From an uncultured delta proteobacterium (GTDB lineage Bacteria > Myxococcota_A > Polyangia > Haliangiales > Haliangiaceae): DNA of 64,000 nt. Positions 1 to 31,255 of the stretch are shown here, piece by piece. A model generated the notes under the pieces. That model had not been told where the DNA came from. It made no database searches and saw only the letters and a program-made list of their open reading frames with translations. The DNA lies in NCBI GenBank assembly GCA_963848295.1, contig CAWKDB010000002.1, positions 64,001-128,000 on the forward strand, given 5' to 3'. The position numbers and the translations under genes are program-made. Numbering within the stretch: position 1 is the first letter of the stretch; each line of letters begins with the position of its first letter.

Positions 1-1026
1 AGCGGGTTCACGCCGAGCAGCGCGAGGTGCGTCGCGTACGTGTGCCGAAGGCAGTGCCAGCTCCGCTCGGTCAGGCCGGCGATGCGGCACACGCGGTAGA
101 TGCCGTGCTTCGACAGCGCCTCGCTCATGGGCTCGCTTGCGTCGTCGGCGACCACGCGGCCGGTGCGGATGCGCGCGAGCTGGCGGAGGTGAGCCGACGA
201 GCCGCGGAGTCATCGGCACCGTGCGCGGCTTGCCCGACTTCGGGACGCCTTCGACGCCGCGCCGCAGGTGCCGCGCGACCGTGATGGTGCCCGGCGACGA
301 GGTCGAGGTCGCGCCACTCGAGCGCGAGCATCTCGCCGACGCGGAGCCCGCAGTCGGCCACGAGCAGCACCGCCGTCCCCCAGGGCTCGCCGTGGTGCAG
401 CGCCGCGCCGACCATGCGGCCGAGCTCGTCGAAGTCGAGCACCTCGATGGGTGGCGGCGGTGGGTTCTTGACCTTGATGCGGGGCGCCCGCTCGATGACG
501 CCCACGTCCTCCGCGTAGCGCATGGCCGTGCTGAGCGTGGCGAGAATGTTCGCGCGGGTCTTCGCCGACAGCAGGCCGGTGCGCCCGCGCCTCGTCAGGA
601 GCTCGGCGCGGAGAGCGTTCACGGCGCCGAGGTCGATCTCGTCGAGGCGCAGCGGGCCGAGCGTCGGCTCGAGCCACGACCTCGAATATGTACCGCTTCG
701 ACTCGAGGGTCGCGACCCGGTTCTCACCCTCGCCGCGACATCGCTCGGTCCAGTAGCGACCGCGGTAGTCCTCGACGGCGCTCGTGACGCCGCCGCGGAA
801 CCACGCGGAGAGCGTCGGGTGTGTCCGCGCGCGCCAGCGAGCCCGGCGCGTACCTCTCGACCACCGCCTCGGCGAGCGTTCGCTCGACGTGCTCGCGCTC
901 GGCGACCTCGGCCGCGCGCTTCGTGTTGACGTTCGGCGTGCCCGAGATGCGCAGCTTGCTGCCGTCGGGCAGCTTGACCACCACGCGGTAGCGCCACACG
1001 CCGCGCGCGTCGCGATACGCGCTCAC
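1..1026 (-). CDS. Tyrosine recombinase/phage integrase (frameshifted, C-terminus beyond window edge)
   Basis: N-terminal VSAYRDARGVWRYRVVVKLPDGSKLRISG, core KTRANILATLSTAMRYA, catalytic GLRVGEMLALEWRDLD, and WHCLRHTYATHLALLG read from about 1-70. The GTG start overlaps the upstream TGA (GTGA). Confidence 0.92.
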
Positions 1027-1763
1027 TTCGACCCCCTGGCCGCGCGCATCTTCGACGGCGACGACGCTCCGCGCGGCGACTTGCCCGCCGCGAGCGCGCG
1101 CTCGCGCGTCCACAGCGAGTACTCCCCCTCGCGCGATGGCGACACAGCGACCACGCCTGAGGCGGGGTCGGCGAGTAAAGCCATAATTGCGCGGCGAGCG
1201 CCGCGCCAGTCGAGGGACCGTCCGAGGCGCCCGCCTGCCCATGCGGCAAGCCCCTTCCACGTCAGCGGCTTGTCCGCGCTCGACAACACCTCGATGAACG
1301 CTTGCGTCATCACCTTGCGTGCCTCGAGCTCGCGCGCAATCGATTCCCGTGCAGTGCGACGAGCTTTTTGCTGGGCCCGAGACAGAGCCTGGAAGTCGGC
1401 GGCCTCGGGGCATGCCCCTACGAGAACGTGCAGGAGCGCGTGGGTCGTCCCGGGATCGGCATTCTTGAACCCCGTCACCACGTCCTCGTAGTCGCGAAGG
1501 ACCTCCCAGACTCCAAGTGCGCCATCGCGGCGCGTGTAGACGTACTCGCGCTCGTCCACGCCACGAGTGCCGATGCCGAAGTGGACGCCCGCAGGATCGA
1601 ACGTCAGGTCGAGCGCGGTGAGCGCGAGGACAACATCCTCGCTGTGGCTGAGCCACCGATGAAAAGTAATCGGCGCGTCGCTCGCCGCGAGGTACGTCGG
1701 CACGTCGTCGCCTGACATCTCGACGACGGGCTTCCGCTTCGTGGTGGTCTTTTTCTGCGGCAT
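1023..1763 (-). CDS. Hypothetical 246-aa protein whose C-terminal domain resembles the C-terminus of the element's helicase
   Basis: Clean ORF from MPQKKTTTKRK. Coupled to the upstream gene (TGATG) and to the integrase (GTGA). Confidence 0.7.
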   Translation of the reverse strand: MPQKKTTTKRKPVVEMSGDDVPTYLAASDAPITFHRWLSHSEDVVLALTALDLTFDPAGVHFGIGTRGVDEREYVYTRRDGALGVWEVLRDYEDVVTGFKNADPGTTHALLHVLVGACPEAADFQALSRAQQKARRTARESIARELEARKVMTQAFIEVLSSADKPLTWKGLAAWAGGRLGRSLDWRGARRAIMALLADPASGVVAVSPSREGEYSLWTRERALAAGKSPRGASSPSKMRAARGSK

Positions 1764-1991
1764 CACGACTTCGACCCCGCCGAGCTCGAGCGCTTCGCCG
1801 CGCGCACGAGCACCTCGCGCGCCCATTGCATCGTGGCGAGGCCGGCATCGCGCGCGGCGCGGTGAAAGAGGTCGCGCTCGGCCGCGGTGAGGCGCATCGA
1901 GAGCACGACGTCGGACGCGTGCTCGGCGCGTGGCTTGCGACCGGCCCCGGTTCGGGGGCCGCCGTGCTTCGGGGTGCGGTGACTTGGGCAT
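1763..1991 (-). CDS. Small ribbon-helix-helix-like DNA-binding protein (one frameshift near 1970)
   Basis: Not in the ORF track. Reads MPKSPHP/KHGGPRTGAGRKPRAEHASDVVLSMRLTAAERDLFHRAARDAGLATMQWAREVLVRAA: a GGxRxGAGRK motif followed by a strand-helix-helix pattern. Confidence 0.65.
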
Positions 1992-2061
1992 GTCCACGAG
2001 AGTCTACCTTTCGTAGTTCGGTTTCAAGAGATAACGATCGACGGAATCAAGGTCGACGAAC

Positions 2062-2202
2062 GACCTCGAGCTCAGGCGTGCGCCGACTCGACTGCAACCG
2101 GCTCGAGGTCAACCACATCGACTGCCACACGACACCCGCACTACTAGTGCGGGGCAGGCAGTGCTGTGTACATGCAGCCGGGTAGATGTCAGGCAGCAGT
2201 CG
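2062..2202. promoter_or_regulatory. Candidate replication origin or operator region with inverted repeats and iteron-like motifs
   Basis: Perfect inverted repeats GACCTCGAGC/GCTCGAGGTC (2062-2110) and CCCGCACTA-C-TAGTGCGGG (2135-2153). TCGACTGC at 2088 and 2118, with inverted GCAGTCG at 2196. Lies directly downstream of the helicase. Confidence 0.4.
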
Positions 2203-2244
2203 GGCCGGTGTCGGTCGACGCCGGAGCTGACAGTGCCCAAAGGT

Positions 2245-3472
2245 CACGGCTTCCGCAGCGCCTACTGCGGCGAGCGCGAGGTCTCGGCGTCCACAGCAGG
2301 GATAGCGAGCGCGCCCCGCGGTCGGGTGGCACCTCGACGACGCTCGAGCCGGGGTCTGCGAGCAGTCGCAGCGACCGCCGCGCGCGAGACGTCGCGGCCC
2401 ACACGCCGCCGCGATGCGTGCGGATGCTCACGCGCCACCGATTGAGCGAGCTCGCCGCTGGCGGCGAGCGTGGCTTCGCGCCGCTCGCCGTCGAGCTCCG
2501 CGGCGGTCGACTGGCGAGCTTCGCCTTCCGCCCCTCGCGCACCTCTCGCGCCGGCCTCGCCGCGCCGTCGACCGTCCAGCGGCCGGTGCGTCCGCAGTAG
2601 CCCGCCGGGATGACGACGTCGCCGGTCCCCATGCGGCAGCTTGCCGAGCGAGAGCTCGACTGCACACGTTCCGTCGGGAGCGCTCGGGGCCGTGACCGCC
2701 GATGGCGACGGTGAGGTGCGCGGCGCGCTCGATGGCCGCGGACTCCGCGCCGGTGTCGGTGGTGTCGGCGCCGACGGCCTCATCTGCGCGCAGCGACCGC
2801 GACGCCGCGCGCGACGTCTGAGACACGGCGACGGCGAGCGACGCGGTGCGACCTGGCACCACCGAGCGACGTGCCTCGATGACGTCGGACGACGCGCGCC
2901 CGCTGGTCGTGCGCCGAGTCGACGGCATGATCTGCACGTAGTCGACGACGACGAGCATCGGTTCGCCCGGGTGGCGCTCGACGAGCTGCGCCCGCGCCGA
3001 CTCGAGGCCATCGAGCGTTGCGTCCTCGCCATCAATCACGACGAGCCGCTCGGGCAGCGCCGAGAGCATCGTCACGTCATCGACCTGACCGCGGATCACT
3101 TCGCGGCCACGAGTGGCCTCGGCTCATGCCGACGACGCGCGCGTCGACGAAGCGCGCCGGCAACTCGCGCGATAGGTAGAGCGCCGGGCCCAGATTGTTG
3201 GCGTGCGAGCATGCGAGCTGCGCAGCGAGCGACGACTTGCCCGAGCCCGTCGAGCCGATGACGCACGACGAGCTCGCCGCTTGGGACCCGGGCGAGCTCG
3301 CCGGGGTCGAGCTCGAGCGTGACCCACGGCTCGCGCGCCCGGGCGCGAATCTCGGCGACGCGCTCTGCAGGCGTCCGCAGCCTCGACCGGCTCGCGCTCG
3401 TCTCGACTTCGGCGTGCCTAGGGCGAGGGCCTCGCGCACGAGCGCGGCGCTGCTTCGATGCGCCGCGCTCAC
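2245..3472 (-). CDS. DnaB-like (SF4) replicative helicase/ATPase, multiply frameshifted; 3' end approximate
   Basis: Walker A IGSTGSGKSS, YLSRE, Walker B VVVDYVQ, SQTSR and GAESAAIERAAHL motifs spread over three frames. Confidence 0.8.
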
Positions 3473-4486
3473 GGTTGCCACCCCGCGCAGTCGAGCGTCC
3501 GTTCAGATCTTTGTGTGGTGCCGAAGTTCGACGAGCTCGGACACTCGCGGTCGAGCACGAGGCCGTGCCGGCTACGAGCTGCGGCGCAGCGCCGCGTGCG
3601 GCACCCGCCGCGCCACTTCCGCCGGGGCCGTCGTCATGCGGCGACGATGAGGAGCTCGCCGATGCTCAAGTCACGGACGATGCGGCGCAACGCATCGACG
3701 ACGTCGGCCATGCGGCTTCGCATCGTTCGCGCCGAGCACGCGACCGCGTGCGGCCAGAGCACGCGCAAGCGGTCAGCGTGTCGAACAGGCCCTCGGCGCA
3801 GGATGACAGTGTCGGACGAGCTCGGTTACGTCTGCACACGCCCGACGAGCGAGCTTCGAGTCGTGCCGCCACCGGGCAGCACGCGCACCTTGGTCTGGTC
3901 GGCGGCCGCGCGCGAGCACGCGGTACACGACCATCTGACGAGCTCGCCGTCGAAGCCATGCAACCGCACGGCGACATCGCCGCACGCGCGGAAGCGCACG
4001 ACGCGTCCGCAGATCGGCAGCGCCGGTTCAAGACCGCGACGGCGCGAGGTACGTCCTCGCCCTTCGGGTGTCGCCACTGGAACGCGCCCCACGCTCGCTC
4101 GGCGCTCGCGCGCCGCGCGAGCACAGCATCGAGGTCGACCGCCCGCTGGCTTCGCCACGCGTCGAGCGGGTTGCTTCGGCGACTTCGCGCCGAGACGCGC
4201 GATGCTCTCCGGCGACCGCGAGCACCTTCAGAAAGTCGCGGCGGCCCGTCGAGGCCTAGGTACCCCGCGATGAGCGAGAGAACGTCGCTGCCTTCTCGCC
4301 GCACGCGTGGCAGTGCCACTCTCCGCTCGCCCGATTCACGGCGACCGAGGCGCGTCGATGCTCTACGCCGCTCGGGCACGACTTCGCGCGGAGCTCGTCG
4401 CTGCCGTCGTACGGAATGTTGAACGCGTCGAGCACGAGCGACGCGTGACCGACGAGCGCGCGCTTCACTTCGACGGCGCGCATCAT
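3469..4486 (-). CDS. DNA primase (CHC2-type Zn finger plus TOPRIM), multiply frameshifted
   Basis: SCPSGVEHRRASVAVNRASGEWHCHACGE, GSDVLSLIA, TOPRIM EGLFD, DDGPG and KDLN motifs. Start/stop overlaps with both neighbours. Confidence 0.75.
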
Positions 4487-4793
4487 GGTGCACCTCGTCG
4501 GCCCGCGAGCTTCGGCGGCGTCCACTCGCCGCGCGCCCACGCCTCAATGTTCGCAGGCGAGCCGAGCCAGCGACGGCCAACGCGGCGGAGTACGCCGTCG
4601 TTCTCGAGCTGCGCGATAACTCGAGCGGAGCACCGTGACGCGCGACATGCCCGAGCACGTTCGCGACGAACGGCCGAGGACATCGAGCGCAGCTTGGTGG
4701 GTGTGCTTCGAGCTCGCCGAGCGCGGGCTGGCGTTGGTCGCGAATCACGACCGCGCTCCGCTCCGCGCGCGCGTGGGTTCGCCGCTCGGTCAA
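4483..4793 (-). CDS. Small Xis/AlpA-like helix-turn-helix protein (frameshifted)
   Basis: FVANVLGMSRVTV...GVLRRVGRRWLGSPANIEAWARG pattern, located directly upstream of the primase. Confidence 0.5.
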
Positions 4794-5031
4794 CTAGCGA
4801 TGCGCTTCGGCGGCGATGAGCTGCTCGAGCTCTCCGCTGCGTAGCTCGAGGACGCGCTCGAGCGCGCGCACAGTGCTCTGGTGCGGCGTGAGTCGGTTCT
4901 CTTCGATGCGGGCGACGGTGGTGCTCGACGTCGCGGGCGCGACTCGCGAGGTCAACGCGCCGCCAGCCGCGGGCTACGGCGATGCTCGCGGACGGCGTCC
5001 CGAGCGACAATGATGGTTTCTTGGTGCCCAT
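4794..5031 (-). CDS. XRE/Cro-family HTH regulator (frameshifted)
   Basis: ARGWRRVDLASRA/TSSTTVARIEENRLTPHQSTVRALERVLEL across two frames. Confidence 0.7.
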
Positions 5032-5065
5032 GTTGACGCTACTCTCGGTTGGGAATTCGTCTCCA

Positions 5066-5734
5066 GTGGCCGTCAAAATCAAAATCCCAATCCCTCGACC
5101 GCGCTCGCTTGAGCGCCGTCGCGCCGTCACCGACGACGGCCGAGGTATGGGTCCGCTGCGACGCGAGGACTACGCACAGTGGTTCGCGGAGTACCCGCAG
5201 CTGCGCCAGCTCGCGTCTCTCGCGACGCGGGCGTTCGACATCGCTGATCGCGAGTCGGTGGACCTACGTAACGACCGACGCGGCCGACCGCGCGACCGAC
5301 ACCCAGAGGTCGCCGGTTTCGTACGCTGGGCGGTCGAACTAGTCGGCCCCAAAGTTCTGGCGCTAACGCTCGTCGTCGGTGGTGTGCTCGATGACGGCGC
5401 CGGACGATACCTGGCGGGTCAACTCTCGCCGCGAGACCGACGCGATTCGAGCAGGCCCGATAGCCGCACCGGCCTCCGGCAGCTTGCGATGCGGCTCGAG
5501 CAGATTGCGCGCGCTGCGCGCCGTCGCGAAAAAGTGAGGCTGGTGATCGCTGCAGGAACCGATGCCCGCGGGCTGAACGACCACCACGGCGACACGCGTT
5601 TTCCACGACCGCGAATCGCCGCTGCCTCGAAGGAGTTCCTTAGCCGATGCCGCTCAGCTGCAAGAGCGCGCGCGTCTCGCCAGCTGTCAATTCGCGTGCG
5701 TTCACGCGCTGGCCGCGTGCCATCGCGGCGATGA
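5066..5734 (+). CDS. Hypothetical protein divergent from the XRE-primase-helicase operon; ends uncertain
   Basis: Protein-like ORF segment MGPLRREDYAQWFAEYPQLRQLASLATRAFDIA. Confidence 0.45.
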   Translation: MAVKIKIPIPRPRSLERRRAVTDDGRGMGPLRREDYAQWFAEYPQLRQLASLATRAFDIADRESVDLRNDRRGRPRDRHPEVAGFVRWAVELVGPKVLALTLVVGGVLDDGAGRYLAGQLSPRDRRDSSRPDSRTGLRQLAMRLEQIARAARRREKVRLVIAAGTDARGLNDHHGDTRFPRPRIAAASKEFLSRCRSAARARASRQLSIRVRSRAGRVPSRR

Positions 5735-6626
5735 ACAGCGCGCGCAACCTGTCGGTCCGCGTGCGACTTGCGCGCTCGCGATGCGAGACGCCTCCATCGC
5801 TGCGGGGCGTATCGAGCGGCCGACCGACATCGCGGAACCGCAGGTCGAGAGCATCGTCTCCGAGACCGAGGCCGCCGAGTCGTGCGCGCACTTCGTCGGG
5901 CGTAGCGGTGACCGCGTTGATGCTGACCCGCCGCCAGTTCGGCCGCGCGCCGCTCTCGCACCTCGCGTTCGTATCGGGCTTGCTTGCGGCTCGAAGCGAT
6001 TCGCGAGGCGGCGCGACCGGGCGGCGTCGGGTTGACCGTGCGCCATCCCGATGACGCCCGGCATCTCCACGCCGGCCGCACGCGCGACGCGTTGCACGTC
6101 GTCGGCGGTGAGTTCAAATGCCGGCGGCATCCGCGGCGGTCGCGGTGCCGAAGGAGGCGCCGTCGGCTTCGTCGAAGCGGGCGCCGGAGCTGGCGCGGTC
6201 GGCTTCCGTGTCTTCGCTGCTCTCTGTTCCCGGTGGACGAGTCGCAGCAGCGGGTCCGTGGGTAAGGTGGGCATCGTCGTGGTCTTCCGTGATTGTGAGG
6301 TTGGTGTCGGACGTGAGCTGCGCATCGGCGGCGCGGCCCGCTCGTCGAGCGCGTGCTCGACCGCAGCGTTGCTCGGAAAAGTGCAGAGCATCTGTCGCTG
6401 CGCCACCGCGAGTACGCGCGGTTCCAGCCGGGCGGTCTCGTGCGCGCGATTTCTTGTCCGTCGACTCGAGCGCTCTGCGCCGAGCAGCAACGCGGCGACG
6501 CGGTCGGCGATGTCGCGGTCGCCGCGATCGAGCGCAGCATCGAGTTGTTGCACGTGGGCGGCGAAATAGCTGACCCATGCGGTCGCATCGAATCTTGTCG
6601 GGGATGCGCTGGCGTTGGCTGCTCAC
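5640..6626 (-). CDS. One or two hypothetical proteins (frameshifted, Pro-rich linker)
   Basis: Protein-like segments QQLDAALDRGDRDIADRVAALLLG, FELTADDVQRVARAAG and RLRALFIAAMARG in different frames. Confidence 0.4.
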
Positions 6627-7021
6627 GCCGCACGCTCCACGAAGTGGTCGGCCTCGACGAGCAGCGCGTTCGCAAGTGCGATGACGAGTGCACGGTCCCG
6701 CATGGTCGTCAGCGAGAAGGCTTCAGCGTGAAGCCGGCGGGCACGGCGTCCGAGACCTTCGCGACGCCGACAGTGCGTTGATACGTCCCGCCGGCCGCCG
6801 ACGTCGGGCAACCGGCTTGCGAGGCGTAAGGAATCGAGTCCGGGACCATCGGCCATCTCGGGGCCGCGCCACCGTGCGAAGCCCGCGGTCCCGCCGAGCT
6901 TGAGCGCCTGGTTTCGCGGCGTCGCGTGGTTCACCGGCGAGCGCGGTGGGCTGGTGCCGGCTCGCGGCGCTTCGACCGAGGGCGAGTTGTGCGGAGCGTT
7001 GGTGGTTGACTTCGTGGACAT
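6623..7021 (-). CDS. Hypothetical protein
   Basis: ATG at 7021 (MSTKSTTNAPH) just downstream of an AT-rich divergent spacer. Its stop overlaps the next GTG. Confidence 0.4.
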   Translation of the reverse strand: MSTKSTTNAPHNSPSVEAPRAGTSPPRSPVNHATPRNQALKLGGTAGFARWRGPEMADGPGLDSLRLASRLPDVGGRRDVSTHCRRREGLGRRARRLHAEAFSLTTMRDRALVIALANALLVEADHFVERAA

Positions 7022-7075
7022 AGTCACAATTCTATTGCACCTGCAAGCCGATGTCAGCTGGTATCGTGATTTGTT

Positions 7076-7726
7076 ATGACGCCGAAGCCAGTCACGCCCG
7101 CCGAGCTCGCTCGACTCCGCGCCGCGTTCACGTCTCGCCGACCGTCGAGCCCGTCCGACTTCGCAGCGGTTGCCGCCGACGTCGGAGTGACCTCGGGGCA
7201 GGCCCGCCGCGCGTGGCTGTACGGTTGGGCCGCCGCAGGTATCGCGCCGCTCGAGCGCGAGCTCGGGTCCGCCGCCGCGGCGCAGCGCCAACTCGGCGTC
7301 GCCGTCGCCACCGCCGAGATGGTCGCCGACGAGTGCGTGCGACGCGCGGCCGAGCTCGGCGAGCACGTCGCCGGGCTCGTGCCGGTCGCGAAGCGACTGG
7401 TCGCGGCGCTCGTCGACGCGCCCGACCTCGCGCAGCTGGCTCCGTCGCTGGCGTTGTCGGCGCTGCGCCAGGTGACGAGCGTGCTCGGTCGCGCGGGCAA
7501 CGTCGCCGCCGACGCCGTCGAGCTGCAACGGCTGGTCGGCGGTCAGGCCGGTCGTATCGTCGCCGTGCAACACGGCGCATCGCCCGACACGATCGACATC
7601 GAGGCCGCGGCTCGCACGCTCGCCGGAACCCAGCGCGCGCTCGAGCGCGCGGCGAAGGCGCGAGCGCCCGCCGCGCCGGACGTCGTCGGGTCGACGGAGC
7701 CGACCGGAGACCCGCGTGTCAACTGA
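7076..7726 (+). CDS. Putative terminase small subunit (N-terminal HTH, helical body)
   Basis: HTH-like FAAVAADVGVTSGQARRAWLYGW. Overlaps the start of the large terminase. Assignment is by position and architecture only. Confidence 0.55.
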   Translation: MTPKPVTPAELARLRAAFTSRRPSSPSDFAAVAADVGVTSGQARRAWLYGWAAAGIAPLERELGSAAAAQRQLGVAVATAEMVADECVRRAAELGEHVAGLVPVAKRLVAALVDAPDLAQLAPSLALSALRQVTSVLGRAGNVAADAVELQRLVGGQAGRIVAVQHGASPDTIDIEAAARTLAGTQRALERAAKARAPAAPDVVGSTEPTGDPRVN

Positions 7727-9148
7727 GCTCGCCGCCAACGTCGACGCGCAGCGGCGAGTGTGGGCGCAGCTCGCGAGCCGCGACTTCCCGACGTTCTGCG
7801 AATTCGTGCTCGAGGACGAGGCGGGCGGCGAGGTGACGCTCGCGCCGATGCACCTCGAGTGGTGCCGGCTCCTCGACGAGCATCCGCGACTTGTCATCTC
7901 GGCGCACATCGAATCGGCGAAGACATCGCTCGGCGTCGTCGCTCGCACGCTCTGGCTCCTCGGTCAGAACCCATCGGCGCGCATCGCCATCGTGTCGAAC
8001 ACGGCGACCATGGCGCAGAAGATTCTGCGCGATCGTCGCGAAGTACATCGTGGGCTCGACGCGGCTGCGCGAGGTGTTTCCGGCCATCGCGCCCGACTAC
8101 AACTCCTTGTGGCGAGCGAACGCGATCACCATCGCTCGCCCGACGTTCACGCGCGACCCGTCCGTGCAGGCGCTCGGCACCGACGGCGCGTTGCTTGGCA
8201 GCCGACTCGACGCCGCATTCCTCGACGACGTCGAGACGTACGCCTCGACCTGCACGGTCGAGGGCCGCGCGAAGGTCGCGGGGTGGGTGCGCTCGACGGT
8301 GCTGACTCGACTCGTCAGTGGCGGTCGCGTCGTCGTGCTCGGTCCCGCGTGGCACGGAGCCGACCTCCTGCACACGCTCGAGGCCGACGGATGGCCGACG
8401 TATCGCTACAGCGTGCAGGATGACGAGGGCCGGTCGCGCTGGCCCGAGCGGTGGCCGCTGGCGCGCATCGCCGCGAAGCGAGTCGAGCTCGGTCGTCGCG
8501 CCGCCGCGAACCAACTCGACGTGGTGCCGCTCGCCGAGGGCGGCAAGATTGACCCGGCGTGGGTCGACGCGGCGCTCGCTCGCGGAGCTCGGCGCCCGCT
8601 CTTGCCGTACGTGCACCAAGCGCCCGACGGGTGCAGCATCGTGTGCGGCGTCGACCTCGCCGTGGGTCAACAGAAGCACCACGACCGCACCGCCATCGCG
8701 ACCGTGTTCGTGCACCGCGACGGACACCGCGAGCTCGTCGCGATGGAGTCGGGGCGCTGGACTGCGCCCGACATCGTCAAGCGCATCCACGCCGTCAACG
8801 AACGGTTCCGCCCGGTGTGCATCCTCGTCGAGAGCAACGCGGCGCAGATGTACATCGTGCAGATGACGCGACAGCTGGCCTCGGTGCCGGTGCGCCCGTA
8901 CACGACCGGCGGTGGCACGCGGTCACTGCACTACGGCGTCGACGGCCTCTCCGTCGAGCTCGAGCGTGGGCAGTGGACGATTCGAGGAGGGCGACCCCGA
9001 GGTCGAGGGGCTCGCGCGCGAGGTCTGCTACTACGACCCGCGCGCTCACGTCGGCGACCGACTCGCAGCGCTCGTGCTCGCGCGCCACGCGGCCGAGCAG
9101 CGCGCGAACCGCGTCGAGTTCTTTCATCACGACTTCAGCGCACGGTAA
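7716..9148 (+). CDS. Phage terminase large subunit (frameshifts near 8030 and 8982)
   Basis: RLVISAHIESAKT (deviant Walker A), LLGSRLDAAFLDD (Walker B), RVVVLGPAWHGADL, RWPERWPL, RNase-H-fold nuclease GVDLA...DRTAI...VESNAAQ...HVGDRLAA. Confidence 0.88.
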
Positions 9149-9153
9149 TACCT

Positions 9154-9662
9154 ATGCGGTCGTGGTGGAACAGCTCACCGACTGGTCGACCGAATGGTTT
9201 GACCTTCAGGTGACGCAGCAACGCTTCTACGCGTCGGCGAAGGTCGAGTCTCGCGCCAGCTCCAAGGACCTCTGCGTCGGACCTCCAGGTTGTCGACTCT
9301 CGTGTGACCGCGATTGGGAGCGATGCACTTCGATGTTGGCGGTCAGGAATCGTGGCACCGCGTCGGAGACAGCCTCGCGCCGAAGGCAATCTGGTCCACT
9401 GCTTTCACGAACCGTGTTGGGCTCCAAGCGTTGAGATTGTCGAGAGGCCGCGGACCGGACGGCTCCCCGGCCAGGCTCTGTAACTGTGCGACCTTCCGAA
9501 ACATAGACGCACGGCGTGGCGTTCGACGTGAACCATGAAATTAGACGCCTGACAGACGCGGACACAGGGTACGTCGTGCGGACGATTAATGACCACTGGA
9601 CGCGTCTACTCGACGAGTCGAAGAACATGGCCGAGGACGTGCTAAAGAGGGCGTTACAATGA
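9154..9662 (+). CDS. Cargo cassette gene 1, hypothetical (possibly TIGR04255-like; frameshifted, perhaps 5'-truncated)
   Basis: Segments STEWFDLQVTQQRF, MHFDVGGQESWHRVGDSLAPKAIW, VTVRPS and GVAFDVNHE...LLDESKNMAEDVLKRALQ. Lower GC than the flanks. Family assignment is from memory. Confidence 0.5.
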
Positions 9663-10207
9663 GCCGTCAGTAGCGCTCAGCTTGCGTTCGACCTCACGAC
9701 GGCCGCAGACGCCGTGGTCGATGGGAGGCACTTCGTCGAGGGGGAAGGCGGACGACGCCTCCGCGAAGCGTGTGGAATCGGCTAAGCGCGTGGCCCGGAG
9801 AGCTCCCCCTTCGGAAATTCTTGCTCCAGAGACCGCCGCAGAAGACCGCCGCGATGAATCTGCCAGTCAGATTATTTTGCAGAGTTGGGAGTGCACGGTG
9901 CTGAGCGTCAGCGACGACGTGTTTGTGGCATCGCTCCGCTCGCTCCGGGATCCAACTGCCCCCGAGCTGGAAGCCGATATCCCTCGCGACGATGTGACGC
10001 CCGACGACCTCGAGCTACTCGAGCCGGGGCGGTGTTCTATGGAGCATTGGATACGAAACGCGGGGCGGACAGCGCCGTTGCGCGTCGCAACTCGCTTTTC
10101 GACGACTGCCGGCGTGGACCCAGCGCGACGTTGACCGTGTCCGAGATCGAGCGAGAAAGCTCTTCGCGGAGTTCGGGAAGCCCGACGATGGCACCACCCA
10201 GCGCTAA
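9659..10207 (+). CDS. Cargo cassette gene 2, hypothetical (frameshifted)
   Basis: LQSWECTVLSVSDDVFVASLRSL...DDLELLEPG/AVFY/WSIGYETRGGQRRCASQLAFRRLPAWT. ATGA overlap with gene 1; its 3' end overlaps gene 3. Confidence 0.65.
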
Positions 10208-11263
10208 CGAACTCGAGGTCTCGATCTTCGGGCGAGGCGTCGGGGAGTGCATAGTTGTCCAGTCGGTGGCGGTAAGTGGGTCGTGATCGACTCTTGTACG
10301 AAGCCGGAAACGAACGAGCCCGTCGCGCTCGAATATCTGCGGTCGCTCGGGGTCGCCGTCGAGACCGACGTCGTTGCGCTCGTCGTCACGCACTGGCACG
10401 ACGACCACATCGCGGCGCAAGCAAGTTGCTCGAAGCATGTACGGCCGCGGAGTTCTTTTGCTCCGCGGCGTTGAATCGCGCCGAATTTTTTCAGCTCCTC
10501 GAGTCGGCTGGCCAATTGGTTCTTGCGGCTGGTTCCGGTTCGGGTGTCGACGAGATGGGGCGGGTCTTCTCGGTGCTGAGCGAGCGCAAGGCGCGCGGAG
10601 GGAAAGTCACGTCGCCAGAATATGCGCTCGCAAACAGGGTCATCTACCGACGCGCGAAGCTCGGAGAGGTTGCTGAGTGCACCATCGAAGCGCTGAGCCC
10701 GAGCAGCACCTCCCTGACGCGGGGGCTCCTGTCGTTCACGCCGGCAATCGGCTCGCCCAAAAAGACGATTCCGAACCCGGGCCCGAACGAGCTGTCGGTC
10801 GCGTTGCACGTGCAGCTCGGATTCGAACGCGGCTCTCCTCGGCGCCGACCTCGAGGTCGGCTCGTCCGACGATGTCGGCTGGCGTGCGGTCGTGCTGAAC
10901 GGCCGCCTGCCCGCAGGCAAGACCGCAATCGTGAAGGTTCCCCACCATGGCTCAAAAGGCGCAGACCATCCGCCGATGTGGGCGACGCTCGTCGGAAGCG
11001 ACCCGCACATCGGCGTGACGCCCTTCAACTCGTCGAGCCTCCCCCGGCCCGACGACATCGCCCGGCTTCGCACCCGCTCGCCGAACGTTTTCCACGCCTC
11101 CCCCAAGCAAGGGCGAAAGCTGAGGCTCGACAACACGAGCCAGAGAATCCTCGACGGTTTAAAGATTCGCGAGCGAGGGGGCTCGCTCGGCCATATTCGT
11201 TTCCGCGCCCCGGATGGGGGCGCTGCTACGTGCGAGCTCTTGGGCGCAGCCGAAGCGGCCTGA
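10188..11263 (+). CDS. Cargo cassette gene 3, MBL-fold metallo-hydrolase of the ComEC/Rec2-like subgroup (frameshifted)
   Basis: FGRGVGECIVV, VIDSC, THWHDDH (HxHxDH), NELSV, LLGADLE and KVPHHGS motifs. Confidence 0.85.
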
Positions 11264-11465
11264 CCGCCCCGGAAGCCACCTGCCGACGACTGGCGACGAA
11301 TGCCCGAAGGTCGCTCGCGAGCACGCGCACGACGTTGTTACCGCGGCCGAAGCGCACCGCGGGGAGCTCGCCGGCCCGCACGTGGCGGAGCACCGTCTCG
11401 GTGCAGCACGCGAGCGCGGCGGCCACCTCGCGCGGTGTCATGAGCTCGTCGCCGTCCATCGTCAT
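11226..11465 (-). CDS. Excisionase-family (HTH_17-like) DNA-binding protein
   Basis: LMTPREVAAALACCTETVLRHVRAGELPAVRFGRGNNVVRVLASDLRAFV, next to the att end. Confidence 0.88.
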   Translation of the reverse strand: MTMDGDELMTPREVAAALACCTETVLRHVRAGELPAVRFGRGNNVVRVLASDLRAFVASRRQVASGAVRPLRLRPRART

Positions 11466-11543
11466 CGAGCTTGAACCCGCCACCGAGCGCTCGTCCACCA
11501 CGGACGACCATGGGCGACCAGCGCCGCTTTTCGGAGCCCGGCC

Positions 11544-11636
11544 TGTTGCCACGGTGTTGCCACGGCGCGTTGTCGCGAGCTGTCGCGAAGCGTTTCGAGC
11601 TGTCGCGAAGGTCGACGAGGATTCGACGAGATTCGA
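11544..11636. repeat. Arm-type/recombination-accessory direct repeats near att
   Basis: TGTTGCCACGG x2 in tandem (11544-11565). CGAGCTGTCGCGAAG at 11576 and 11596. GATTCGA at 11620 and 11630. Confidence 0.6.
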
Positions 11637-11705
11637 GAGCGGCGGCGCGAGCTTCGACTACATCTCGTGCGTCTTCGACGAGATGGCCGCGCCGCCGTTT
11701 GCTAT

Positions 11706-11726
11706 TTCGAGTCCCGCCCCGCGCAC
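11706..11726 (+). other. att core: duplicated 3' end of a tRNA (probably tRNA-Leu)
   Basis: TTCGAGT-CCCGC-CCCGCGC-A equals T-loop, T-stem 3' strand, acceptor 3' strand and discriminator A. No 5' half of a tRNA upstream. Confidence 0.75.
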
Positions 11727-28558: not shown

Positions 28559-31255
28559 ATGGCAAGGGGTACCCGCGCTCCGTCTCAGCACGCCTACCGC
28601 GGCGCGGTCGGCCACACGCAGACCGCGAACATCCACGTCTCGACCGGCAAGGGCGACGTCGTCGCGACGGTCTACACCGCGATCGACGCGGTCGATAACC
28701 CCGAGCTGGTCGCGCGGCTCCACGCCGACGAGCTGAACGTGATCGCGACACCGGGCGGCGAACCGGTGCGCGCCGCGGTCCCGGTCGTCTATCACGACTC
28801 GGCAGCCGAGCTGATGGTGCTCGTGCTGAGCGATGCGCATCGACATCGCGAGCTCGACGAGCGGATCGCGTTGCTCCAGCGTTTGCGCGACGATACGTCG
28901 CCGATTCCCGGCTACGTCAAAGACTTCGCGGTCGCGTACGGCCCTGCCGGGTTGCGCGCGTATCTCGAGCACCGCGCCGAAGAGGCGCTGGTCAAGGCGA
29001 GGTCGCCCGAGGGGACGCGCGAGCGCGAGCTCGATCGCCGCAAGGCCGAGCTCGACCACCAGCGCGCCGACCTCGAGCGCGTCCGCAACGAGCTCGATCG
29101 CACGCGCAGCGAGCTGACCGCGAAGCAGGCCGAGCTTTCGCGCCGGAGCTCGGGTCCGATCGCTCGCGTCGCGCCAGTGGCCGAGCCGACGTCCGACGAG
29201 ACGACGATCGGCGCGCCACCTTCGCCCGAGGACATGGCCACCGCGCCGGTCGGCCGGTTCTCCTCGCTCAACACGCCACTGCCCGCGCCGCTGCCGACGG
29301 ACCCGGCGAGCGCACCGGTCGCAGCGGCGGCCGCCCCGAACGGCGTGTTCCATCACGAGGTCGATCACGATTTCGACGACGGTCCGACCGGGTCGGCGAT
29401 CGTGCCGCAAGGCTCCGATCCGCTGACGACCGAAACCGTCGAGCTGCCTGTGCAAGCCGATCCGTGGCTCGACTTCGCCGCCACCGGCGCGGCGTCGAGC
29501 TTTCACGTCGAGCACGGTCGCGTTCGGCTCGCGCTGATCGCCGACGAGCAGGTCACGCGCGGGCTCGGCGGCGAGCTCGATATTCGCGTGCTGCTCCATC
29601 GCGCACAGACCTACCCGGTGATCGCGCTCGTCATCGGCCCACCCGCCGCGCTGCGCGTACCGAGCCCGCGTCAGCTCGCGTTCGTCGTGCTCGACGTCGG
29701 CCTCGAGCACGATCGCCAGGTGCTCGATGCGCTCGCGCACGACTTCAAGCTCGAGATCGAGCTGATCGCGCGCGGCCAGTCGATCCGTCACGTCCAGCTG
29801 ATCGCGCCACTCGCCGACAACGTCGGGTACGTCGTGCGCGCCGCCGACGATCACCTAAACGCGCTGACCGCCGACGGCGAGACCGAAGCGTCGTTCGCCC
29901 GCGCTCGCGAGCTCGTGCTCGGAGATGGCTACGACTTGCTCGGTCTCGAGCATACCGAGGCGTCGGAGTTCCGCGACGACAAGCTCGCCCAGCTCCAGAC
30001 CGCCCAGCAACTGCGCCGCGCGATCGCGATGGCGCGGCGGTTCGCTCGACCGTCGCGCGAGGACTACCTCGTGTGTGCGCGGGGCTTCCCGATCTCGCGC
30101 TGGCACGAGCTCCGCCGCCACGTGCTGCAGAGCGCGGTCGCGTGGGGCCTGTGGATGGGCCCGGAGCTCGCGCAGGTCGCGGTATCCGAGGGTCTGGCTC
30201 GATCGCGCCGCGATCTGATCGTCCGGCTCGGTGCCGGGTTCGAAGCGCTGCGCGCAAACCCCGCGGCGAACGACATCGACTCCGATGCCGCGGCGGACAA
30301 CGCGAAGGCGCTCGCCGAAGAGGCGAGGGCGCTCGGCGTCGAGCTCGACGCCGACGTCTACGGCAAGCTCAACGGCCACTCGAACGGTCACGCCGCGATC
30401 GCGAGCGAGGATCGCCCGGTCGTGTCGGGCTCGATCGAGCGAACGCCGACCCACGCGCTACACGGCACATCGACGCCGGAGCTGATCGGCCTGCTCGACG
30501 ACAAGAAGCATCGGCTCGCCGCCGCGATCGAGCTGTGCGATCGCGGAGAATCGGCCGCCGCGCCGCTGATCGTCGGGACCGCGAAGAAGCTACCGCGATC
30601 CGAAGCGGTCCGCGTGCTCGGCAAGTCGGTCAAGCTCGGCCCGCCGGCGGCGCAGTCGCTGATCGATGGCCTTGGCAGCAGCAAGGCGTTCCTGCGCCAC
30701 GGCTGCGCGCTCGCGCTCGCGCTGCTGCATACCGACGAAGGCACGAGCGCGGTGATCGAGCAGTTGTTCGCCGAGCCGACCGAGATCTGGCGCGAGATCG
30801 CGCGCGCGATCGGCCAGATCGGGACGACCGCGCTGATGCCGCTCGCCGCGCAGACCGGCCGGCTCGGCGACCGACTCAATGCCCAGGTCGCGGAGCGCGT
30901 CGCCTGGGCCATGGCCCACATCGGCGTACGCGGCGGCAAGAGCTCGCTCGAACAAATGGCCGCGGGCCAGAGCGTGATCGCCCCGATCGCCGCCCACGCG
31001 CTCGAGCTGTTGTCGACCGCGGCGAACGACGACGTCCGGCTGCGCCCGGAGGGCGCTCCGCCGCGCGACGTCACCGTCAATCGCGCGTTCTCGCGTCGCT
31101 TCTTCGAGGCGCTCGAGCCGGACGAAGCGGCCACCGCGCTGGGCGACCTCGAGGCTTCGACCCCGATGGAGCTGCTCGACGAGGCCGATCTCGTCGCCGA
31201 AGAAGAGGCCGACGACGAAGCCGAGCTCGACGAGTCGGATCTCATCCAAACCTAA
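28559..31255 (+). CDS. Large hypothetical protein with coiled coil, Pro-rich linker, HEAT-like repeats and acidic tail
   Basis: Long ORF with host-like codon use; LDRRKAELDHQRADLE; LRHGCALALALL and IWREIARAIGQIG. Confidence 0.8.
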   Translation: MARGTRAPSQHAYRGAVGHTQTANIHVSTGKGDVVATVYTAIDAVDNPELVARLHADELNVIATPGGEPVRAAVPVVYHDSAAELMVLVLSDAHRHRELDERIALLQRLRDDTSPIPGYVKDFAVAYGPAGLRAYLEHRAEEALVKARSPEGTRERELDRRKAELDHQRADLERVRNELDRTRSELTAKQAELSRRSSGPIARVAPVAEPTSDETTIGAPPSPEDMATAPVGRFSSLNTPLPAPLPTDPASAPVAAAAAPNGVFHHEVDHDFDDGPTGSAIVPQGSDPLTTETVELPVQADPWLDFAATGAASSFHVEHGRVRLALIADEQVTRGLGGELDIRVLLHRAQTYPVIALVIGPPAALRVPSPRQLAFVVLDVGLEHDRQVLDALAHDFKLEIELIARGQSIRHVQLIAPLADNVGYVVRAADDHLNALTADGETEASFARARELVLGDGYDLLGLEHTEASEFRDDKLAQLQTAQQLRRAIAMARRFARPSREDYLVCARGFPISRWHELRRHVLQSAVAWGLWMGPELAQVAVSEGLARSRRDLIVRLGAGFEALRANPAANDIDSDAAADNAKALAEEARALGVELDADVYGKLNGHSNGHAAIASEDRPVVSGSIERTPTHALHGTSTPELIGLLDDKKHRLAAAIELCDRGESAAAPLIVGTAKKLPRSEAVRVLGKSVKLGPPAAQSLIDGLGSSKAFLRHGCALALALLHTDEGTSAVIEQLFAEPTEIWREIARAIGQIGTTALMPLAAQTGRLGDRLNAQVAERVAWAMAHIGVRGGKSSLEQMAAGQSVIAPIAAHALELLSTAANDDVRLRPEGAPPRDVTVNRAFSRRFFEALEPDEAATALGDLEASTPMELLDEADLVAEEEADDEAELDESDLIQT

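Follow-up and report, generated by a model that had tools for sequence, protein, structure and literature searches.

Can a phage satellite bring its own DNA-packaging motor and leave the rest of the virion to a helper? The question is raised by a 12-kb element on the left edge of the window, a stretch of 64,000 nucleotides (positions 64,001 to 128,000, C2:64001-128000) of contig CAWKDB010000002.1, here C2. The contig comes from an uncultured delta proteobacterium, a probable myxobacterium, whose assembly (GCA_963848295.1, genome G000) comprises 7.78 Mb in 11 contigs and is 85% complete. An earlier note on this DNA had proposed a "packaging-motor-only" satellite that carries a terminase pair. 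The element has defined att boundaries, a gene content in which shell genes were not recognised, a large terminase subunit (TerL) from a clade separate from phages and under purifying selection, and a gene family that shares a motif with phage scaffolds. A tRNA-integrated island with its own motor and no recognisable shell genes is, in our judgement, probably a phage satellite that would package itself into helper heads; its loading into helper proheads is what we infer from these features. Positions without a contig or locus prefix are those of the window, and loci and genomes used for comparison carry L and G numbers.

The limits of the element were found by including the DNA to the left of the window. 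An intact tRNA-Leu(TAA) gene lies at C2:63632-63715, its end 286 bp to the left of the first base of the window. The 20-mer singled out in the earlier note as a tRNA-derived att site has exactly two copies in the 7.78-Mb assembly, one at C2:63695, in the 3' end of this gene, and one at window position 11706. The att repeat is 21 bp long: the last 21 bases of the tRNA gene recur at 11706-11726 and nowhere else in the assembly, so that the element, with 12,011 bp enclosed between the two copies, is fully visible, and the suspected second att site near the window edge is accounted for. Host genes flank the element on the left and on the right, which means that no structural genes are concealed past the left edge, where the earlier note had advised looking for them. 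The host left flank beside the tRNA gene is conserved within the genus (87% in L225, counting left-flank rows only). A 10-mer is present just inside each end (window position -227; 11545 and 11556; 31 copies genome-wide), and its position would fit probable integrase arm sites. A repeat search inside the element gave nothing above chance.

The 138 six-frame stop-to-stop open reading frames (ORFs) of at least 55 aa in the element were scanned against Pfam and PHROGs. Clear matches were obtained for the integrase, TerL, the excisionase (HTH_17) and a cargo protein of the metallo-beta-lactamase (MBL) fold (listed simply as cargo in the earlier note, which also named the other three), and none of the 138 matched capsid, portal, tail or lysis families. 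The ribbon-helix-helix (RHH) gene, the XRE gene, the primase (here of zinc-finger type) and the helicase (here DnaB-like) of that note were recovered weakly, under the curated cut-offs, while its inner Xis-like gene, at about 4540-4740, had no match. Profiles were also built from clusters of at least three proteins of related phage loci; in the element, TerL and the TerS-like gene were their sole matches apart from one antisense match at E 6e-4. The portal, capsid and scaffold cluster profiles of these phages matched nothing in the element, and no portal-size gene is left there without an assignment.

Both terminase subunits are encoded. TerL matches phrog_38 in two frames (E 3e-32 and 1e-17), and its nearest solved structure is T7 gp19. 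In the alignment, all of its catalytic motifs are intact: Walker A (7905-7928), Walker B (8215-8229), the coupling motif (8341-8352) and the nuclease acidic residues (8647-8661, 8827-8838 and 9053-9064). The 216-aa product of the preceding gene has an N-terminal helix-turn-helix (HTH) followed by long helices, and it is homologous to the gene just before TerL in related phages. Two weak pointers come from an Atlas cluster with Terminase_5 at 72% (score 0.93, rank 27) and from a top Foldseek match to a TerS (E 0.065). Its identification as the small subunit (TerS), already proposed in the earlier note, is therefore supported by position and homology, with no curated family match. No conserved DNA motif that could be a pac candidate was found upstream of terS in the four islands compared.

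Among 8000 scored candidates, 205 proteins match the middle piece of TerL, the best at 53%, and a portal cluster is present in 95 of the 167 TerL loci fetched, many of which are duplicates. Where records with related islands bear a name, they belong to the Myxococcales and Polyangiaceae, in line with a myxobacterial host. A tree of 172 rows was computed, from which duplicates and alignments shorter than 250 aa were excluded, dropping several distant island TerLs. In this tree the window TerL belongs to a 25-row clade with a support of 99, a value also obtained with IQ-TREE on 63 rows. Seven rows of the clade have an island context (labelled by inspection) and 18 are short or without context; none of the 84 phage-context rows falls within it. 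Four of the seven have at least 5 kb downstream of TerL (the window, L107, L116 and L119), and in L118, L114 and L121 the 1-2.5 kb that follow hold non-structural genes. The closest relatives thus sit in portal-less islands; the earlier note would have taken a TerL found only in complete prophages as evidence against a satellite. The dN/dS ratios of two close clade pairs (0.149 and 0.097) point to purifying selection; those of two other island pairs are 0.149 and 0.153, and six phage pairs give 0.11-0.19. The order ORF-D and ORF-C, then terS-terL, is common to the window, L116, L118 and L119/L120; the integrases, the replication genes and the cargo are not the same in these islands. A distant TerL is present in nine of 90 further genomes of the genus (the unpublished genomes G010 and G050 figure solely as non-matching rows in tallies such as this one). 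Clade-specific changes were also seen in the TerL nuclease domain at the phage-conserved P411, G414, M458 and E465 (P0002 numbering), possibly at its portal-facing end.

The earlier proposal of a packaging-motor-only satellite stands for the motor and falls for the "only", since a scaffold-motif protein, ORF-D, is also present. ORF-D matches the gene upstream of terS in L118 (E 4e-6) and has counterparts in L116 and L119/L120; none was found in the DNA in view of L107. A profile search among 1.84 billion representatives yielded a family of 69 members, whose profile A6 matches the window ORF-D at E 5e-24, the window copy not being in the alignment. Family members consist of two to three short helices that bear the same motif, on flexible linkers. 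In phage loci, the weak matches of the ORF-D profile fell on the C-terminal end of the gene that immediately precedes the major capsid gene. Judged by its sequence, this gene is a scaffold in related phages: four of six match the scaffold families phrog_194/2303, PF06810 matches at E 6e-6, and the downstream neighbour is a capsid protein in five of five. In 80 further capsid loci, an upstream ORF was found in 71, with 62 distinct C-termini, and the motif stands at the end of 60 of these 62. A profile built from phage scaffold C-termini alone, used with a threshold of 8 bits, matched 64 of 71 ORF-D family sequences (45 twice or more) and none of 1420 shuffles. Its best non-scaffold matches among 3679 called genes are in L116, L118, L210 and L211, all island genes; chance six-frame matches in the host genome reach 11 bits. 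At family level ORF-D thus shares the C-terminal motif of phage scaffolds, the window's own copies scoring below 5 bits. In the near-identical islands L210 and L211 of genome G272, which belong to another TerL lineage, proteins of about 90-100 aa (L210:8286-8552 and L211:8493-8795) end in the same scaffold motif at 19 bits, which suggests that this lineage captured the motif independently.

In SaPI1, one of the pathogenicity islands of Staphylococcus aureus (SaPIs), CpmB is described as sharing a C-terminal motif (RIIK) with the 80alpha scaffold and competing for its site (PMC5644958, in the part available). From this precedent and from gene position, the ORF-D motif may by analogy bind capsid protein. 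A complex prediction for the L031 phage capsid protein with the L116 copy of ORF-D gives weak support to such binding: the pair scored 0.52 vs 0.00 for the best control, the runs agreed in at least 30% of contacts, and the partner had a predicted local distance difference test (pLDDT) value of at least 57. In the calibration, 116 of 157 solved pairs and 2 of 215 mismatched ones attained the mark, and scores up to 0.60 within the mark come from only 18 solved pairs and both mismatches. ORF-D is likely, as a prediction, a scaffold mimic acting on helper head assembly. Fold searches of ORF-D did not rise above background (best E 0.66 in BFVD, best Z 4.7 in the PDB), Atlas held no usable match, and Pfam and PHROGs searches on 47 family members returned single-member matches only. 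ORF-D was not found in IMG/VR (pattern scan), in GenBank phages or in 400 other genomes of the class.

In the cycle that we propose, infection by a tailed phage sharing the TerL/TerS type would lead Xis and Int to excise a 12-kb circle, which the primase and helicase would replicate. The two to three scaffold-tail copies of ORF-D would compete with the helper scaffold and bring about small heads or the capture of normal heads, a step modelled on the single-copy competition by SaPI CpmB. The island TerS would recognise island DNA and the island TerL would dock on the helper portal, so that the element would need no compatibility with the helper's TerL. Finally, the tail and lysis genes of the helper would release the packaged element. 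Tailed phages with the same TerL/TerS and capsid type are, from their sequences, the likely helpers. A search of 401 genomes of the host's class revealed phages of the matching capsid type in 3, one of them in the host's family, and the motif is present upstream of the capsid gene in two of the three. IMG/VR contigs of the phage family sharing the TerL/TerS type reach 98 kb. No clear CRISPR array that could name a helper was found.

Several observations weigh against this satellite. No portal or capsid gene was found in the 85%-complete assembly, and thus no resident helper. The motif copies of the window are eroded (4.7, 3.9 and below 0 bits on the phage-motif profile; 6.7 in L119/120). The window TerL has a long branch (0.66 vs 0.30 for its sister) and changes in 19 of 88 conserved columns, vs 7-24 (mostly 10-14) in 23 clade members, and dN/dS is 0.42-0.52 for distant clade pairs and 0.17-0.87 for window comparisons (both saturated). 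Just the four clade loci named above have at least 5 kb downstream of TerL, and a portal can sit more than 10 kb away in true phages of the family (L072). L107 carries TerL but no ORF-D or integrase in view, and no att repeat was found for L116, L118 and L120 within the DNA examined. Lastly, the frame-path model places 10 frameshifts in the 7.55-kb coding path of the island (1.3 per kb), compared with 50 in 349 kb of host DNA (0.15 per kb), none in a second island of this genome, on contig C11, and 12 in 184 kb of control loci. These roughly ten frameshifts, like the scaffold-motif gene, go beyond what the earlier note had observed. Frameshifts are patchy in this assembly: of 426 windows of 12 kb, 164 have none and 12 have at least 10, the latter including operons read by eye as cytochrome oxidase and Kdp, and thiG carries three. 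Such strong clustering means that pseudogene claims in this genome call for read checks, and assembly error is the likelier cause of the frameshifts in the element. The long TerL branch, the changed columns and the eroded motifs argue against a pristine copy; that this copy is still working is somewhat favoured.

The frameshifts and the long TerL branch would also fit a prophage, or a capsid-forming phage-inducible chromosomal island (cf-PICI), from which the genes for head, portal and tail were deleted. TerS and TerL are clearly phage-derived, and most TerL relatives are in phages, with the portal cluster in 95 loci. However, no portal, capsid or tail remnant was found, both att sites and Xis are intact, no in-frame stop was seen in the island frame path, and clade members, only 45-62% identical, are all portal-less where context exists. 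ORF-D, encoded on the opposite strand, is not a scaffold remnant but a rearranged protein with several motif copies, and the whole-family ORF-D profile stays below 40 bits in 83 capsid-gene loci. The element shows neither the structural genes or remnants of a prophage nor a TerL nested among portal-bearing phages. Deletion is largely refuted by the conservation of the clade and of the module, and we regard it as very unlikely.

Two further readings keep the island intact and change what it does. The terminase and ORF-D could poison the assembly of infecting phages, as a competing motor and a decoy scaffold, in an element that does not travel in particles. Three capsid-binding copies per chain might cross-link capsid proteins and derail assembly, the relatives L118 and L120 have PADLOC matches to defence-type cargo, and satellites are known to inhibit TerL, as the accessible part of PMC11417361 reports. 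Such a defence role is nonetheless unlikely, as a decoy would need neither ATPase and nuclease motifs kept intact under purifying selection nor a coupled TerS, and sizes of 9-15 kb together with Int/Xis and replication genes suit a packaged element. Alternatively, the satellite family may be real and ORF-D may do something else, for example bind DNA through an SAP/HeH-like helix, unmodified heads being filled with concatemers. The motif is indeed short, the fold searches are empty, one member matches SAP at E 0.0025 and the complex score is weak. Still, 60 of 62 scaffolds end in the motif, outside scaffolds it is nearly restricted to genes of islands, and a second island lineage (L210, L211) also bears it, which makes another function for ORF-D distinctly unlikely. 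A satellite that fills helper heads remains our preferred reading.

The remaining features of the element are collected in Table 1. The catalytic H-x-x-R, H and Y of the integrase lie on its continuation left of the window. Matches of the zinc-finger primase to phrog_47/2304 range from E 1e-4 to 4e-4, with a tblastn match to the primase of the C11 island at E 2e-4, and the Walker A piece of the helicase lies at 3080-3274. No HTH was detected in the divergent ORF at 5147-5731. ORF-C is only 26-32% identical to its look-alikes in L116, L118 and L120, and the profile scans assigned it to no family. One sigma-70-like match was found, vs 0.2 expected, in the gap that separates terS from the leftward genes and is richer in AT. 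The MBL-fold cargo is possibly a defence gene; as a resistance gene (beta-lactamase) it was rejected (NCBIfam 19 bits vs a cut-off of 100). Elsewhere in the window, ARAGORN calls a permuted transfer-messenger RNA (tmRNA) of 724 nt at 30345-31068; a normal tmRNA lies at C2:1500933, so this call is probably false.

Table 1. Features of the integrated element, in window coordinates.
Feature	Position	Strand	Remarks
Integrated element	1..11726, start 306 bp left of window		attL = tRNA-Leu(TAA) 3' end, C2:63695-63715
Tyrosine integrase	1..1022	-	at least 3 frames; PF00589, phrog_1; frame path
246-aa protein, no assigned function	1026..1763	-	no match in Pfam, PHROGs, PADLOC, NCBIfam
Probable RHH regulator	1766..1948	-	PF21983 E 0.009, under cut-off
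DnaB-like helicase, in pieces	2683..3400	-	PF03796 E 0.006, AAA_25 E 0.002, phrog_19 E 0.004
Probable DnaG-type primase with zinc finger, in pieces	3640..4540	-	phrog_47/2304/360
Probable XRE-type regulator	4797..4955	-	PF01381 E 0.02, under cut-off; heads leftward replication genes
Divergent ORF, no assigned function	5147..5731	+	repressor position; no convincing match
Scaffold-motif protein ORF-D	5646..6274	-	two frames; family profile A6
ORF-D motif copies	6071-6118, 5865-5921, 5649-5705	-	family motif
ORF-C, small broken protein	6300..6703	-	look-alike at same place in L116, L118, L120
Sigma-70-like promoter match	7029..7057	-	10/12 positions; consensus match only
TerS-like protein	7076..7726	+	216 aa, intact frame
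Terminase large subunit TerL	7716..9148	+	about 475 aa, three frames; phrog_38
Small cargo ORFs, no assigned function	9516..10134	+	frame path, family scans
MBL-fold hydrolase cargo, in pieces	10190..11263	+	PF00753, phrog_28593
Excisionase (HTH_17)	11310..11463	-	PF12728 E 6e-10, phrog_66
Tandem 10-mer	11544..11565	+	copy also just inside attL; probable integrase arm sites
attR	11706..11726	+	21-bp copy of tRNA-Leu 3' end

How widespread is the arrangement? Fourteen tRNA-adjacent TerL loci were tested; in ten, counting the window, an att repeat bounds 8.9-15.2 kb, and four have none, so that nine further att-bounded, portal-less TerL islands of 9-15 kb are present in related genomes. Other portal-less TerL islands sit on separate tree branches, which implies several origins of the design. 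For 11 of these islands, 107 of the 147 called proteins of at least 75 aa were scanned for structural families, the other 40 being integrase, terminase, resolvase, replication or protease genes (by profile scans or by eye); no portal or capsid was found among the 107, and there was one weak "virion structural protein" match. L194, L218 and the C11 island have prohead-protease domains; two "major head protein" profiles, at their protease end, match that of L218 as well. Prohead-protease or protease-like fusion genes follow TerL in portal-less islands at L194:6960-7853, L218:8134-9186 and L196:11219-12379; we read such fusions as an alternative head-hijacking part.

Other elements were noted alongside. 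The second portal-less island of this genome (G000:C11:45521-58100; L021:10500-20000 and L022:1-3000) lies at a tRNA-Thr(CGT) and encodes an integrase, a toxin-antitoxin-like pair, a primase, a VirE-type helicase, a TerS-like protein, a TerL unlike that of the window and a protein of 548 aa that combines an XkdF-type prohead protease with a long helical tail; it has no frameshifts, and no att repeat was found for it. The tRNA-Thr(CGT) beside thiE/thiG is a hotspot, with different TerL islands in four genomes of the genus (L193, L195, L198 and G000 C11). One Polyangiaceae genome has two islands (L109:4049-12924 and L110) whose TerLs are 79% identical; that in L109 spans 8.9 kb, is att-bounded at a tRNA-Met and carries a rolling-circle-type Rep and a resolvase. 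L199 and L221 combine TerL with ParB-methyltransferase, DUF2924-like and serine-recombinase genes (names by eye) and no portal, and we read them as another, known-looking integrative type with terminase. A further tyrosine-integrase element, whose integrase resembles that of the window by eye, lies at G000:C10:4257000-4260000.

Chances are evenly balanced that these islands represent a distinct and old satellite class, with its own complete motor and a multivalent scaffold mimic, that takes its portal, capsid, tail and lysis functions from large tailed phages, and that the design arose repeatedly in myxobacteria from different TerL lineages, scaffold-motif and protease-scaffold genes serving as interchangeable parts for hijacking heads. 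For a satellite with its own TerS-TerL, a compatible portal would be all that the helper has to offer; this may broaden the range of helpers and evade measures of helper or host that target the pairing of TerS with TerL. The analysis names a candidate helper family and a concrete interface, a scaffold tail motif in two to three copies facing the capsid protein. Current tools would file such islands as prophage debris; at least ten att-bounded examples, some relatives carrying defence-type cargo, come from one bacterial class in which satellites are barely described. No published description of TerS and TerL satellites without capsid and portal was found, although such elements could be listed in the supplementary tables of SatelliteFinder or VEIME work; the design is conserved and apparently unpublished. 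In the available part of a preprint on myxobacterial viruses (10.64898/2026.09.14.751636), satellites appear only in the references.

Known systems are compared here as the available portions of the cited papers describe them. Archaeal satellites with a packaging ATPase alone, which use spindle-shaped viruses (10.1101/2025.02.15.638363), are a loose analogy. Like the PICI-like elements (PLEs) of Vibrio cholerae, the element probably has a non-resident helper and is predicted from its genes to manipulate packaging and head assembly (PMC11417361); unlike it, a PLE has no TerL of its own and inhibits and redirects that of the helper, and no PLE marker genes were recognised in the element. VEIMEs (integrative mobile elements encapsidated in virions; PMC9618062) and EPIPs (PMC12822802) are likewise small integrative elements without tails, some with TerS. 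However, VEIMEs are reported with TerS only and no capsid, TerL being treated as a helper gene (PMC9618062), and EPIPs with TerS, scaffold, major capsid protein, adaptors and tape measure and no TerL (PMC12822802).

The nearest likeness is to PICIs, which the SatelliteFinder model defines by integrase, regulator, primase-replicase, capsid-morphogenesis gene and TerS (PMC10085698), TerL, portal and head-tail genes marking cf-PICIs (PMC10085698; 10.1101/2022.09.08.507074). The element resembles PICIs and SaPIs in its size, integrase (PF00589, phrog_1), probable regulator, primase-replicase, TerS, cargo and lack of tail and lysis genes, the primase-replicase being represented by weak but consistent primase and DnaB-like matches in pieces. 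It differs from them in its probable myxobacterial host. No AlpA, MerR or Stl match was seen, only a weak XRE (E 0.02) and HTH_17 (SatelliteFinder profiles were not run). In place of a capsid-morphogenesis gene of known family, it has a scaffold-motif protein as a functional candidate. The ORF-D family shares the C-terminal motif of the phage scaffold as SaPI1 CpmB does, with another motif sequence and two to three copies of it on each chain. Whereas PICIs use the helper's TerL, the element encodes its own; like the cf-PICI EcCIEDL933, it has both TerS and TerL, with the TerL in a clade apart from phage homologs (10.1101/2022.09.08.507074). What sets it apart from cf-PICIs is that neither a major capsid, a protease or a portal nor head-tail connectors or HNH were found across the att-bounded element, and that its TerL is of the T7 gp19-like/phrog_38 type. 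The element would work like a PICI yet belongs neither to the PICIs nor to the cf-PICIs, and it fills the gap between PICIs, which have TerS only, and cf-PICIs, which encode a whole head.

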